A program made the position numbers and the translations under genes. DNA of 64,000 nt. Source: an uncultured Pseudomonadales bacterium. GTDB taxonomy: Bacteria > Pseudomonadota > Gammaproteobacteria > Pseudomonadales > UBA7434. The notes beneath the pieces were generated by a model. That model did not search any database and was not told the origin of the DNA. It saw only the letters and a list, made by a program, of their open reading frames with translations. The stretch is taken from the NCBI GenBank assembly GCA_964504585.1, contig CAZDEW010000001.1, forward strand, positions 95,868 to 159,867, read 5' to 3'. Every line of letters begins with the position of its first letter. Positions within the stretch are counted from its first letter, which is position 1. Of the stretch, positions 15,195 through 53,172 are shown one piece after another.

Positions 15195-15449
15195 ATGTCT
15201 AAAGGGCAAAGCCTACAAGACCCTTATCTTAACCTTCTGCGAAAGGAACGCGTACCCGTCTCCATCTATTTGGTTAATGGGATTAAATTACAGGGACAGA
15301 TTGAGTCATTTGACCAGTTCGTTATTCTCCTGAAAAACACCGTCAGCCAAATGGTTTACAAGCACGCTGTTTCGACGGTTGTTCCCGGCAGGAATGTTCG
15401 TTTACCGATGGCGCCATCTGAGGATGACGATTCATCTGGCAACGAGTAA
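15195..15449 (+). CDS. hfq: RNA chaperone Hfq
   Basis: [32 protein letters not shown]. Confidence 0.99.
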
Positions 15450-22343: not shown

Positions 22344-22652
22344 TCAGTCTTGATTGCGATGTTGGACGTTGCGCCGGAAGGGGTGCACAGCCCGGTTTCT
22401 GGAATCTCGACGTCGGTCTTGCGTTCCTGAATCGTTTTGGCCTGATTCATTATCTGTTGCCTCGCGTTTAAGCGAGTTGCCGCTCGCCTGTTCCCGTTGG
22501 ATGCGCTCATAAATTTCTTCACGATGCACAGCAACGTCGCGTGGAGCCTGAATCCCCAGCCTGACTTGCCTGTGGTTGGCATCAAGGACGGTTATCTTGA
22601 TGTCATCGCCAATATAGATTGACTCACCAACTTTTCTTTGCAGTAACAACAT
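22344..22652 (-). CDS. csrA: CsrA/RsmA-family RNA-binding regulator with C-terminal extension (probable paralog)
   Basis: [23 protein letters not shown]...[20 protein letters not shown]. Confidence 0.9.
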
Positions 22653-25362: not shown

Positions 25363-25947
25363 TTAACTATACGCCCGCAGAAAATTCTCTAGCAGCTTGT
25401 GACCGTGTTCAGTCAGTATGGACTCAGGATGAAACTGCACGCCCTCAATCGCAAGTTCCTTGTGGCGCACGCCCATGATCTCATCAAACTCACCGCTTTC
25501 GGTCTCTGTCCAGGCGGTGACTTCGAGCTGGTCGGGCAGAGAGTCTTTTTCAATGACAAGCGAGTGATAGCGGGTTGCATTGTAGGGCGAAGGCAGGCCA
25601 TTAAAAACACCCTGCTGCCGATGATGGATTTTCGAGACTTTACCGTGCATGACGGAACCGGCCCTTCCAATGCTGGCGCCAAAGCACTGCCCGATACTCT
25701 GGTGCCCCAGACAAATACCGAGCAGAGGAATCTTTCCAGCCGCCGCTTTGATAAGCGCCATTGAAATACCGGCTTCATTGGGTGTACATGGCCCCGGCGA
25801 AATCACAATCTTGTCGGGCTTTAGCTGCATGACCGCTTCAACGCTAACCTGATCATTGCGCAGGACTCGAACTTCTTCGCCAAGCTCACCAAGATACTGC
25901 ACGATGTTGTATGTGAACGAGTCATAGTTATCCAGCATGACAATCAT
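25363..25947 (-). CDS. trpG: Anthranilate synthase component II (glutamine amidotransferase)
   Basis: [26 protein letters not shown]. Confidence 0.96.
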
Positions 25948-27491
25948 GATGTCACCCCTTTATCGCAACCATCCTTATCGGAGACCTGTGCCTGTTCCGC
26001 CAGTGATGCAGCGCGCAGCATGGCTCTGGCCTTATTCATGGTTTCTTTCCACTCCAATCTTGGTATCGAGTCTGCAACCACACCACCGCCGGCCTGTACA
26101 TAGAGTGTTTCATTCTTGATAACAGCAGTACGGATAGCGATCGCGGTATCCATATTGTCTGACCAGCCGATGTAGCCGACCGCGCCACCATACACGCCGC
26201 GTTTAACGGGCTCGACTTCATCAATAATTTCCATTGCCCTGACCTTAGGCGCACCACTGAGTGTTCCCGCGGGCAGCGTTGCCTTTAACACATCGATCGA
26301 CGACATGCTGGGATCTATTTGACCAATAACATTGGATACGATGTGCATCACATGTGAGTAGCGCTCGACGATCATTTGATCGGTAACAACTACCGATCCA
26401 GTCTCTGCGACTCGTCCCACATCATTTCTGCCAAGGTCAATCAGCATAAGGTGTTCGGCTATTTCCTTTGGATCATCCAGAAGTTCGCGCTCAAGTGCTA
26501 TGTCCTCTTCCTGGCTGTGCCCTCGGCGCCGTGTGCCGGCTATTGGGCGAACGGTGACTTCGCCATCTTCCTTGCGTGCCAGAATCTCTGGCGAAGAGCC
26601 CACGATCTGGAATTCCTCGAGATCCAGAAAATACATGTATGGCGACGGATTCAGATGCCTGACGGTTCGATAGAGACTAAGCGGGTCGGCCTTGAAGGGC
26701 GTGCGCATACGCTGGGAAGGCACAACTTGCATAATGTCGCCAGCAAGTGCGTAGCCTTTAATTTTCTCGACGACCTCGCCATAAGACTGCTCGTCAAAGT
26801 CTGAAACAAAGTCGCTCTCCTGCAGCTGCAGTGTTTCGCTATCGGCGCTGACGCGAAGATCCGGCAGACTAGCGCCTCCATCAATCAGGGTTTTCTCAAT
26901 CTGGTCGAGTCTCGCATCGGCTTCGTTAAGTACACTCTCAAGCGCATCGCCCTGATGATTGTTATCCTCAATTTGCGCATGCGTGACGATGTGGATAACG
27001 CTTGCGACATTGTCAAAAACGAGAACATCCTCAGCCAGCATCAGCAAGATATCAGGGCAGCCTAATTCGTCCGGTGGTGCTGAATCCTTAAGTCTGGTTT
27101 CCACATAGCGCACACAGTCGTAGCCAAAATAGCCGACGAGACCCCCATGGAAAGCGGGAAGCGTATCAAGTGTGGGTGCTCGATAGCGGTTTTGAAACTC
27201 TTCCACAAAGCTGAGCGGGTCTGTCTTGGTATGCGTCTCACGGACCACACCTTCGATCTCTACGTGAATCTGATCACCGTGGACTCGCAAAAGCGTGCTG
27301 CACGGTAAGCCAATGATTGAATAACGGCCCCATTTTTCGCCGCCTTGCAGGGACTCCAGAAGAAACGTATAAGGCTGGCGAAATTTGGCGTACGCGCTGA
27401 CTGCGGTGAACCTGTCGGCCAGCACTGTTCGCGTGATTGGTATCCGGTTATAGCCCTGGGCAATGAAACTTTTGAGTTGCGAAAATTCCAT
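25944..27491 (-). CDS. trpE: Anthranilate synthase component I
   Basis: [37 protein letters not shown]. Confidence 0.97.
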
Positions 27492-27616
27492 GGTGATTGA
27501 ATATCATTAAATCGATGAATGCTCGTGCGTCTGGTCTAATTTTTGGCCTTGACCCATAGATCGGCGACAATCGAGCGATAGGGCTAACAGCCCGGTGGAG
27601 ACCTGAGAGGTCCGGA

Positions 27617-27712
27617 TTATAGAGAGGACTGGCGTCGCCAACAGCCTGCCACGGTTGCCGCGGAGCTGGCGCAGAGTTTTTGTAAGAGTTTGGAAAGGCA
27701 GCTGCTGTTCAT
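27617..27712 (-). CDS. Putative trpE leader peptide (31 aa, MNSSCLSKLLQKLCASSAATVAGCWRRQSSL)
   Basis: Manual translation; W followed by RR near C-terminus; TAGAAT -10 box (minus strand, 27742-27747) upstream; hairpins downstream. Confidence 0.45.
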   Translation of the reverse strand: MNSSCLSKLLQKLCASSAATVAGCWRRQSSL

Positions 27713-27872
27713 CGATAGAGTTTCTTGCTGGATGGCTGGAGATTCTAACCTAGCCGGCGGACTTGCTCTAGGCGCAGGGCATGGCGTTTACGGTGATTTT
27801 CGCGGTTTCAGCGTGTCTTCTTGGCAAGCGGCGCCGCTCACGACGGGATATCAAAATCATCAGGTCTATAAA

Positions 27873-27885
27873 AATCAAGGACTTA
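27873..27885 (+). promoter_or_regulatory. IHF binding site
   Basis: AATCAAGGACTTA = exact WATCAANNNNTTR, AT-rich context, ~25 bp upstream of a sigma54 box. Confidence 0.7.
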
Positions 27886-27908
27886 CATCTTAATTAATCG
27901 TAATCTGT

Positions 27909-27924
27909 TGGCGCAGGCGTTGCA
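27909..27924 (+). promoter_or_regulatory. Sigma54 (-24/-12) promoter
   Basis: TGGCGC-AGGCG-TTGCA; GG-N10-GC spacing, one mismatch to TGGCAC-N5-TTGCW. Confidence 0.78.
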
Positions 27925-27934
27925 AAAGCACCAG

Positions 27935-28148
27935 TGACGAGATAGGATTCTCCCAGCTCTGACGCCGCATCTTGGTGCAAAACGGTGTCCCCAGGGCTCA
28001 GTTCGGGGCATGTCTTGCGACGTCGCCCATGAAGTGAGTCGGGTAACAGTTGTTTAGCATCCTGGAGCTTGCGATCAGTCGTCCAGAGTCAGGCTTTCCC
28101 CTGAGCCGAATTAAAAACCCGAGGCAGAATCTGCTTCGGGTTTTTTAT
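27935..28148 (+). ncRNA. Candidate sigma54-dependent small RNA (~210 nt), family not recognised
   Basis: Between sigma54 promoter and strong terminator; no credible ORF; several stems incl. GGCTCAG(27995-28001)/CTGAGCC(28101-28107); 5' end inferred. Confidence 0.6.
28113..28148 (+). terminator. Rho-independent terminator (likely bidirectional, also serving rpe)
   Basis: aaaaacccgaggcag-aat-ctgcttcgggtttttt. Confidence 0.88.
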
Positions 28149-28163
28149 TTTTGCCTCTTTAAT

Positions 28164-28213
28164 TTCTTGCTGTGGGCACTTTCTTGCTGTGGGCACCTTC
28201 TTGCTGTGGCACG
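28164..28213. repeat. 17-bp tandem repeat x3 (TTCTTGCTGTGGGCACY), degenerate units continue to ~28254
   Basis: ttcttgctgtgggcact / ttcttgctgtgggcacc / ttcttgctgtggcacg. Confidence 0.85.
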
Positions 28214-28264
28214 TTCTACCTGCGCCACTTGCGGCGCGTTCTAGCTTCGGCACGCTGTGCCTTT

Positions 28265-28942
28265 TTAGGCTGGCTGTATTTTGCTCAGCTCCGCCCTCAT
28301 CTTTTGTATCACTTCGGCGTAATCATCTTGGTTGAAGATGGCTGAGCCTGCTACGAACGTATCGGCTCCGGCAGCGGCGATCTCTCCGATATTACCGACC
28401 CCAACGCCGCCGTCCACCTCAAGCCTGATATCTTGATTGCAGGAATCTATCAGCTCCCGTGCCTCTGCCAGCTTGGACAGGGTCGAGGGGATAAACTTCT
28501 GCCCGCCGAAACCCGGATTGACCGACATCAATAGCATCATATCGATCTTGTCCATCACATAGCTCGCCGCATCGAGCGGGGTTGCAGGATTGAAAACCAG
28601 TCCGGATTTACACCCCGCATCCCGAACGAGTTGCAGCGATCGGTCGATATGCATGGTCGCCTCGGGGTGAAACGTAATGTAGGTCGCTCCTGCTTCTGCA
28701 AAATCACCAATCAGACTATCAACGGGTGACACCATTAAATGCACATCAATCGGTGCTGTGATGCCGTAATTTCGGAGGGCCTTGCAGACCATCGGGCCGA
28801 TGGTCAAATTGGGGACATAGTGATTATCCATCACATCAAAGTGAATAATATCTGCCCCGGCTTCAAGCACTTTGTCTACCTCCTCTCCTAGTCTGGCGAA
28901 ATCGGCCGATAGAATAGAGGGTGCGATCTTGAAATCATTCAT
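28265..28942 (-). CDS. rpe: Ribulose-phosphate 3-epimerase
   Basis: [37 protein letters not shown]. Confidence 0.98.
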
Positions 28943-29072
28943 CGTGGGTTCTCTGAGCTATGTCTCGGATGAGGTGGTTTATGGGAGGGTCACTAAGCGC
29001 TTAGTTGCTTGCGAACTATACTCAATAGTCATAGATGACAGGAAATCGGAATCATCAAATTCAGGGATGCTC

Positions 29073-29906
29073 ATGATACGCAAACTGACCAAACTTTCCA
29101 CGCGCGTTTCAGGCAAACAGTGCCTTCTAGCGATGACTCTGTTTGCGGCGTGTAGCTTGACGCTAGCCGCTGAGCGGCTGACCGCCGGGGCCGACGATGA
29201 GTTCCGCAAGCAGCTCTTTATCGAGCGTGCCAGCTCGCAAGATCTTGCCAGCTTCAGCAGCGACAGCGGCAGCTTTCTGGGTCGTCTCTCCCTGCCTGCG
29301 GACCAGGCTGGTTTTGGCCTACTAATGGTTGTCGATCAGGACCGGGATTTAATTCAGCGAAACCTGGAGACGGTCTTGCTGAACGAGCTTGGCCTGAGTG
29401 GTTGGCCGGTGTTTATTGTTAGTCTGGGGCGCACAGCGCAAGGTTCGTATCAAGATGAGTCCTCGCAGGAGCTTTATGCCAGTATTCTCAACAGCGCCTT
29501 GCGTGAATTTGAGCAGCGATCCATACGCCAGATTGTGCTGTTGGCGTCAGAGGCCTCGCTCGAAACCGGCAGCCAATTGGCCGCGAGGTCGGAAGTGGTC
29601 AGCCATCTTATGTACAAGATCAACACGCGTGATAAATCCGGCAGCGCAGGACTGTCGGTTAACAGTGGGATCAGCCGGCTAAACGCGCTGTCTGACAGTC
29701 GCGTGGGCATAGTGGATTTGGTGCCCGCATCAATGAGTAAAAAAATGCTCGCGTCGAGGAAAAGGGCGCTGGCAAAGGAGCAGCTGGCTGACCTCCACGA
29801 TTTTATTTATGTACCCGGGTTCGAGCAGACTTCCAGTCATCAGGTGATTGCCAAGCGCCTTAGAGCATGGATGAAAGAAAATCGTCGGGGGAGTGATGCG
29901 ACCTGA
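29073..29906 (+). CDS. Exported protein, probable DUF3530 family (degenerate alpha/beta hydrolase fold)
   Basis: Signal-peptide-like N-terminus after ATG 29073 (AGGGA RBS); C-terminal KRLRAWM; position next to murU as in Pseudomonas. Confidence 0.55.
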   Translation: MIRKLTKLSTRVSGKQCLLAMTLFAACSLTLAAERLTAGADDEFRKQLFIERASSQDLASFSSDSGSFLGRLSLPADQAGFGLLMVVDQDRDLIQRNLETVLLNELGLSGWPVFIVSLGRTAQGSYQDESSQELYASILNSALREFEQRSIRQIVLLASEASLETGSQLAARSEVVSHLMYKINTRDKSGSAGLSVNSGISRLNALSDSRVGIVDLVPASMSKKMLASRKRALAKEQLADLHDFIYVPGFEQTSSHQVIAKRLRAWMKENRRGSDAT

Positions 29907-53095: not shown

Positions 53096-53172
53096 GGGCC
53101 CGTAGCTCAGTTGGTCAGAGCATCCGACTCATAATCGGCAGGTCGAAGGTTCAAGTCCTTCCGGGCCCACCA
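53096..53172 (+). tRNA. tRNA with CAT anticodon, most likely Ile2 (lysidine) type
   Basis: Acceptor GGGCCCG/CGGGCCC-A-CCA, D arm AGCTCAGTTGGTCAGAGC, anticodon CCGA-CTCATAA-TCGG, T loop GGTTCAAGTCC; GACTCATAATC and location downstream of rpoD as for ileX. Confidence 0.93.

Follow-up and report, generated by a model that had tools for sequence, protein, structure and literature searches.

A candidate small structured RNA gene between trpE and rpe in one genus of the Pseudomonadales

Introduction

CrcZ/CrcY, NrsZ and Qrr are intergenic small RNA (sRNA) genes that depend on sigma-54, with an additional IHF site in the case of CrcZ. CrcZ and CrcY carry repeated A-rich AAnAAnAA motifs, and the Csr/Rsm sponges are rich in GGA motifs, of which several lie in hairpin loops. 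In RsaE/RoxS of the Firmicutes, exposed C-rich motifs in hairpin loops pair with G-rich mRNA stretches and serve as seeds. For the mostly uncultured group that holds the genus studied here, we know of almost no described regulatory RNAs. The promoters of the sRNA genes glmY and glmZ are reported to be of three kinds depending on the species, namely sigma-54 with IHF, overlapping sigma-54/sigma-70, or sigma-70 only (PMC3045617).

Here we analyse a stretch of 64,000 nt from an uncultured Pseudomonadales bacterium (in the following 'the window'), in which the original prediction had placed a sigma-54- and IHF-driven RNA gene of ~210 nt between trpE and rpe. From the sequence comparison we conclude that a small structured RNA of ~195 nt (~27955–28150), not described before, has a genuine predicted gene on the + strand of the trpE–rpe spacer. 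The full reading, with a sigma-70-type promoter and a trans-acting RNA of the Hfq type, has a probability of roughly 0.6, and the sigma-54/IHF reading of the promoter is only partly supported. Literature on an sRNA at trpE–rpe, or on sigma-54/IHF-dependent sRNAs of such a kind, was searched and nothing relevant was found.

Results and Discussion

The spacer (27492–28264, 773 nt) holds the predicted sRNA gene on its + strand and is flanked by trpE (25944–27491, - strand; TIGR00564, E 1.1e-165) and rpe (28265–28942, - strand; TIGR01163, E 2.5e-95), the two genes named in the original prediction. The sRNA is predicted to run from a conserved CA start at 27955 to the U tail of a terminator at 28150 on the + strand (~195 nt, both ends being predicted). 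When folded, the + strand of 27935–28150 reaches -92.5 kcal/mol compared with -66.8 ± 4.3 kcal/mol for 200 shuffled sequences, none of which was as good (z -6.0). The strong terminator of the original prediction is present and consists of an A run, a 15-pair hairpin (28113–28145) and a T run, and since it reads in both directions (28113–28152) it can, judged by its sequence, end the sRNA (+) and rpe (-) alike. A similar U-tailed terminator is found in G003, which also shares the A-rich linker in front of it, and the remaining relatives have weaker 3' ends. A comparison of the whole window with Rfam 15 at gathering thresholds gave a tRNA (53096–53169) as the sole match, so that the spacer has no match at gathering scores, in line with the novelty claimed for it. 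For the spacer, eight weak matches appeared at E up to 10, all of them sub-threshold and terminator-driven, with the best one (NsiR1, 23.2 bits vs 39) spanning the terminator only, and the loci of nine relatives gave no match at E up to 0.1.

Several other features of the surroundings were noted. Between the terminator and rpe lies a 17-nt tandem repeat, TTTCTTGCTGTGGGCAC, with 3.3 copies (28163–28217), of which about one unit (18–19 nt) is missing in contigs of a related strain. The start of rpe is overlapped by ~70 nt on the opposite strand by a 344-codon ORF (28872–29906, +) for which NCBIfam and Pfam searches gave no match and which may be no real gene. On the other side of the spacer, the ~250-nt leader of trpE contains a 31-codon ORF, MNSS...CWRRQSSL (27617–27712, - strand), the likely -10 element of trpE being TAGAAT (27742–27747, - strand). 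The corresponding small ORFs of the relatives contain W-R-W (TGGCGTTGG), and by its sequence the ORF looks like a trp leader-peptide attenuator.

In order to find homologues we compared 27860–28150 with 40 relatives including 20 genomes of the same genus by BLAST, which revealed no homologue in the genus; a 40-nt match in G036 was rejected as terminator-like. Homologues surfaced only through collecting the rpe–trpE spacers. The rpe gene is present in 20 of the 21 genus genomes, and trpE lies inside the fetched rpe flank in 16 relatives, with spacers of 264–1321 nt. From the longer spacers a common block could be read, consisting of CCTGGAG, 20–30 variable bases and (Y)YAGGCTCTCCCCNGAGCC, which in the window is located at 28061–28107. 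A covariance model of this 3' block of the RNA (R1), built from 12 sequences, gave exactly one match directly downstream of rpe in 10 of the 21 genus genomes (E 7.8e-16 to 7.2e-9), the one in the window being 28054–28115; the RNA gene is common to about half of the species of the genus. The conserved block is always found within ~50–160 nt of the rpe stop codon.

Outside the genus, R1 had no match in any of the 147 genomes that belong to other families of the order, and its three matches in a set of 151 genomes were all within the genus. Among 60 rpe loci from a broad range of Pseudomonadales (60 of 80 loci were taken, the 20 left out being Pseudomonas records) the single match was L014, with the same bit score as G014. 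When 401 genomes of the order were scanned with a strict pattern, five matched, again all genus members. From metagenome contigs a strict motif scan retrieved 18 loci, five of which (L113 and L115–L118) show the promoter and the 5' part and are near-identical to the forms of G016, G014 and G011; the remaining 13 were rejected as unrelated matches, as by eye they had no promoter or 5' similarity. Within the genomes covered by these sequence searches, the RNA family is confined to a single genus. In the rpe tree, which is based on one short gene and has a weak backbone, the genomes lacking the RNA group into two clades, both well supported and composed of smaller genomes, with G012 as a further one. 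This distribution suggests an old sRNA gene that was lost several times, and it hints at an accessory regulator that was shed in genome reduction.

The position of the RNA had been described as the one taken by gph in Pseudomonas. In four genomes of the genus, rpe and trpE are indeed separated by a gph-like gene of the HAD hydrolase family, namely at the loci L089 (G011), L090 (G019), L103 (G005) and L092 (G012). In G012 it fills the spacer and the RNA is absent, and in the three others it adjoins the sRNA gene in divergent orientation, ~86–140 nt from the RNA start, the gene order being trpE, gph, sRNA, rpe. The location therefore holds, but the RNA is not simply a substitute for gph, as the two are neighbours in three relatives. 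No remnant of gph was found in the window's own trpE–rpe spacer.

To look at the structure, ten RNAs were aligned with MAFFT and analyzed with RNAalifold, which predicted a helix P1 and a 3' hairpin. In P1 the first 20–30 nt pair with the segment that has the CCUGGAG box on one side and the hairpin on the other. In the window its 5' strand is predicted at 27957–27973 from the minimum-free-energy fold and a test of cognate duplexes, and its 3' strand at 28065–28090 from the fold, the alignment and the same duplex test. Ten of the 15 predicted pairs of the RNAalifold structure are maintained in the 10 sequences despite changes on both sides. Scored on the alignment from which the structure itself had been derived, 90.5% of the paired cells are compatible compared with 77.1 ± 2.1 in shuffles (0/500 as high), double changes occupy 26 cells vs 9.0 ± 2.4 (0/500), and the pairing drops to 26–45% if the structure is slid by 1–3 columns. 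An alignment-free test gave the same picture: in eight independent lineages the duplexes between the first 30 nt and their own 3' segment have a mean energy of -15.8 kcal/mol vs -8.7 ± 2.5 kcal/mol for non-cognate duplexes, and the true assignment of the P1 strands is the best among all 40,320 permutations of the eight lineages. Conservation and covariation had been named from the beginning as a check, and with the RNA kept in the 10 genomes and P1 covarying strongly this check speaks for an RNA gene. Together with the fold and a conserved promoter of its own (see below) it upholds the original prediction of a stand-alone, unannotated and structured RNA gene on the + strand.

The details of the fold had to be revised. 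A long-range stem GGCTCAG/CTGAGCC had been proposed, but the comparison puts CTGAGCC into a local hairpin (28092–28107) and not opposite 27996–28002. Similarly, the proposed local hairpin GACGCCG/CGGTGTC lies outside the comparatively supported fold, in which the 5' end (27957–27973) pairs with 28065–28090 instead. The ~80 nt between the P1 strands from 27974 to 28057 are a lineage-specific apical extension of the window RNA, represented by gaps in the nine relatives, whose RNAs measure 96–130 nt over the same span compared with 161 nt here.

Two boxes of the RNA are near-invariant. The first is CCUGGAG (28061–28067, +), which is identical in 12 of 12 aligned sequences, and the second is the hairpin GGCUC-UCCCCN-GAGCC with a C-rich loop, which in the window reads GGCUU-UCCCCU-GAGCC (28092–28107, +) and whose stem columns are paired in 83–100% of the 12 sequences. 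The loop is predicted to be unpaired in eight of the ten RNAs. As the boxes never vary, no covariation can come from them. An alternative pairing of CCUGG with YYAGG is 100% compatible with the alignment, the only changes being C/U opposite G, and it fits as well as an extension of the hairpin, with double changes in neither. For the CCUGGAG box, roles as a second seed, as a protein site or as the alternative-pairing partner of YYAGG are conceivable.

Which strand is used can be judged from the pair types. A tally shows ~20 G.U cells in the helices, and because these would turn into A.C mismatches on the opposite strand, the RNA is assigned to the + strand; a U.G pair in the hairpin, here and in G003, also suits the + strand only. 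These cells weigh against the idea that the conserved block is no + strand RNA gene at all but a DNA site or the 3' untranslated region of rpe on the - strand. Its constant closeness to the rpe stop codon, the bidirectional terminator and a - strand fold that is also better than its shuffles (z -4.2) would fit such an origin, whereas the + strand promoter blocks are conserved, the covarying helix spans 100–130 nt and the + strand has T runs after the hairpins both here and in G003, so that we regard it as very improbable.

A small protein as the actual product can be given even less credit. Two ORFs do exist in the spacer, one of 15 codons at 28010 and one of 64 codons with a TTG start (28050–28244). 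The former falls into the apical extension that is missing from the nine relatives, the frame through the conserved block is broken by a TAG in G018 (by eye), and the RNAs do not differ in length by multiples of three. None of the small ORFs is conserved, and we consider a coding function next to negligible.

The regions upstream of the ten genes can be aligned to a common layout of (G)CTTGnn, 17 nt, TAnnnT, 6–8 nt and CA, which looks like a housekeeping promoter of the sigma-70 family. In the window it corresponds to a -35 hexamer TTGCAA (27920–27925), a 17-nt spacer and a -10 hexamer TAGGAT (27943–27948), i.e. 27920–27948 on the + strand. The alignment of TTGnnn-17-TAnnnT holds in eight of nine relatives, and G003 and G015 fit it after a register shift of 1–4 nt (by eye). 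The -10 hexamers are weak, with TAnnnT as their only common feature, and an automated sigma-70 scan with a threshold of 9 of 12 did not list 27920–27948 among its matches. In every lineage P1 starts 2–3 nt past the sigma-70-type start, which sets the RNA start at ~27955 and not at ~27935 and shortens the RNA from the ~210 nt claimed before to ~195 nt; a sigma-54 start near 27935 would lengthen it by ~20 nt. From this shared layout the sigma-70-type promoter is probably the ancestral and main promoter of the sRNA gene.

The original prediction had instead assigned the gene to sigma-54. A sigma-54-like box, TGGCGC-N5-TTGCA (TGGCGCAGGCGTTGCA; 27909–27924, +), is indeed present, agrees with the consensus at 10 of 11 positions and has the correct GG-N10-GC spacing (context TGGCAC-N5-TTGCW), but it is confined to this genome and does not occur in the promoters of the nine relatives. 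With the strict pattern only one of 17 spacers matched, which was that of the own genome, and with relaxed GG-N10-GC scoring none of the nine relatives had a box in the 140 nt before the RNA start. Seven of them have no GG-N10-GC candidate at all, and those of the other two, located 86 and 145 nt upstream, are poor, with scores of 5 and 7 of 11. Moreover, TTGCA as the -12 element of the box coincides with the -35 hexamer common to all ten genomes. At least one such pattern occurs by chance in 33 of 100 shuffled windows. The box might have arisen by chance, or it might be a second promoter of recent origin, and its chance of being functional is about one in three.

If this promoter makes the RNA, an IHF bend at 27873–27885 and an enhancer-binding ATPase upstream would be involved and a signal-induced transcript of ~215 nt would result, possibly in parallel to transcription from the sigma-70-type promoter, with which such a reading could be compatible. 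The genome encodes rpoN and eight strong enhancer-binding proteins, the box is identical in a related strain, and switching between sigma-54 and sigma-70 in combination with a need for IHF has a reported precedent in glmY/glmZ (PMC3045617). In addition, the box, the centre of the IHF-like site ~55 nt and a palindrome ~103 nt upstream of the predicted start form a textbook sigma-54 layout, which counts against the sigma-70-type promoter as the main one and was treated as secondary by us. On the other hand, P1 abuts the sigma-70-type start and the 20 extra nucleotides have no counterpart in the relatives, the IHF-like site also occurs in relatives without the box, and GlrR-, NifA- or NtrC-type sites were looked for upstream of the sRNA promoter and none was found. 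We consider transcription from the sigma-54 box less likely than not and prefer the sigma-70-type promoter.

Genome-wide, 15 sigma-54 pattern matches were counted vs six for the reversed control. They fall into two types: seven of the nine TGGCGC-type matches, the type found at the sRNA, are inside ORFs, which further weakens the case for the box, whereas five of the six TGGCAC-type matches are intergenic. TGGCAC-N5-TTGCW boxes are found 44–178 nt before ORFs on contigs of the own genome (G000 C8:51129, C24:33890, C35:26705, C45:11806 and C35:11192). Three of the five ORFs have matches, all below the curated cut-offs, to families of the choice-of-anchor C, PEP-CTERM (EDSAP-1) and CsaB-like kinds, the fourth gave a sub-threshold match to isopentenyl-diphosphate isomerase and the fifth none. 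From their sequence context these boxes represent a probable sigma-54 cell-surface regulon, and their position before PEP-CTERM-type and related genes suggests that such a regulon is in use, a point in favour of the sigma-54 reading.

The IHF-like site AATCAAGGACTTA (27873–27885, +) is an exact match to WATCAANNNNTTR and lies 47 nt before the -35 hexamer. Five of the ten genomes have a copy, strict or with one mismatch, 40–59 nt upstream of the -35, at exactly 47 nt in three of them including the own genome; the window as a whole contains four such patterns vs 1.7 expected by chance. As the site recurs at a similar distance in half of the genomes, it goes beyond a local coincidence, and an involvement of IHF in the sRNA promoter is plausible. 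The exact consensus claimed for this site could be confirmed, but not its tie to sigma-54.

Further upstream, a perfect 12-nt palindrome AGCGGCGCCGCT (27827–27838) had been proposed as an activator site. It is present but not conserved, and by number it is unremarkable, the window containing 26 perfect 12-nt palindromes. Viewed one at a time, the sigma-54, IHF and palindrome motifs do not exceed chance level. No counterpart of the palindrome could be seen by eye in the upstream regions of the relatives, and no conserved activator site was found upstream of the IHF-like site, where by eye each genome has different palindromes. In L086 (G003; spacer ~347–363) an NtrC-like palindrome, TGCACCGGAATGGTGCG, which resembles the NtrC consensus, lies ~100 nt upstream of the sRNA -35, and no sigma-54 box accompanies it (by eye).

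Strain variation could be followed in contig X4 from another study, a comparison of low depth that represents effectively one strain and has no cover at 27945–28023. Compared with the window, X4 shows 10 differences in 27718–27846 and none in 27847–27944 (Fisher p 0.006), the invariant part comprising the IHF site as well as the -10 and the promoter in both readings. There are also no differences in 28024–28156, which takes in the 3' portion of the RNA together with the terminator, and X6 from the same study agrees. The palindrome is unchanged in X4 although its flanks differ. We take this pattern as an indication of purifying selection on the promoter and the 3' RNA and counted it for the main reading.

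With respect to function, the RNA is most likely a trans-acting base-pairing RNA of the Hfq type. It shows what the genome of such a case would be expected to contain, namely a promoter of its own, a conserved structure, a U-tailed intrinsic terminator and an encoded Hfq, hfq (15195–15449, +) heading an hfq-hflX cluster within the window. In the proposed mechanism the exposed C-rich loop (UCCCC), and perhaps also CCUGGAG, would base-pair with target mRNAs at their G-rich, GGGGAG-like ribosome-binding regions, to which the loop is complementary, and would thereby alter their translation or stability. The IHF-like site ~47 nt upstream of the -35 could allow control through a bent upstream region. 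A crude target scan in the own genome (GGGGAR before start codons combined with RNAduplex) gave inflated, non-specific energies and nothing usable.

The invariance of both boxes in 12 of 12 sequences would also suit recognition by a protein. As CCUGGAG contains a GGA, and as csrA is encoded in the same window 5 kb from the sRNA gene (22344–22652, - strand; at 102 codons a long member of its family, with the CsrA domain at residues 1–52), the RNA might chiefly bind or titrate CsrA or another RNA-binding protein via CCUGGAG and the hairpin instead of pairing with mRNAs. The ten aligned genus RNAs have only one to three GGA each (two in the longest reading of the window RNA), in line with the lack of multiple GGA loops noted before, and A-N-GGA is missing in the own RNA. 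The number of GGA makes a CsrA sponge unlikely. Moreover, no Rsm/Csr family matched in Rfam and the RNA is present in a single copy per genome, and altogether we judge protein titration as improbable. A CrcZ-type Hfq/Crc sponge is unlikely as well, since the A-rich motifs already reported missing from the window RNA were found in none of the ten RNAs. Base pairing through the C-rich loop is the function that we prefer.

A more speculative scenario concerns the promoter. One lineage might have gained a working sigma-54 promoter over the ancestral sigma-70 one, reusing the IHF bend and recruiting an enhancer-binding protein, and the RNA would then respond to a new signal and carry a 20-nt 5' extension. 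Although we consider this rather doubtful, it would offer a snapshot from nature of the kind of promoter-class switch that has been inferred for glmY/glmZ, caught here in a marine or biofilm gammaproteobacterium that is uncultured.

Conclusion

In summary, the sequence comparison argues that the sRNA family between trpE and rpe is real and undescribed and of a familiar kind. It adds a new and well-supported RNA family with a conserved promoter, a covarying helix and two invariant boxes to a poorly studied, mostly uncultured group, and its C-rich loop and the CCUGGAG box offer handles for target finding. A working sigma-54 box would make the locus an example of how an sRNA comes under the control of a new sigma factor; failing that, it is another lineage-specific bacterial sRNA of modest general interest.

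Among the known systems, CrcZ/CrcY, NrsZ and Qrr share with this locus an intergenic sRNA gene with a sigma-54 box and, in the case of CrcZ, an IHF site. They differ in that the spacer has no Rfam match to any of them at E up to 10 and is bordered by trpE, rpe or gph and not by a neighbour of the cbrB, ntrC or luxO kind, and CrcZ/CrcY additionally by their AAnAAnAA motifs, of which all ten RNAs have none. GlmY/GlmZ of the Enterobacteriaceae are likewise stand-alone sRNA genes, and the arrangement found here, one lineage with a sigma-54 box over a sigma-70-type promoter, relatives with the sigma-70-type alone and an IHF-like site upstream, recalls theirs. In contrast, there is no match in sequence or structure (no Rfam match), TGTC-N10-GACA sites were not found upstream, and the glmY promoters share one start, whereas the putative starts here would be 20 nt apart because the sigma-54 -12 lies on the sigma-70 -35. 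RsaE/RoxS come from another phylum and show no homology, and the RNA described here has a single C-rich loop in a genome that encodes Hfq, but the conserved and exposed C-rich loop is common to both and may serve as a working model for the UCCCC loop.
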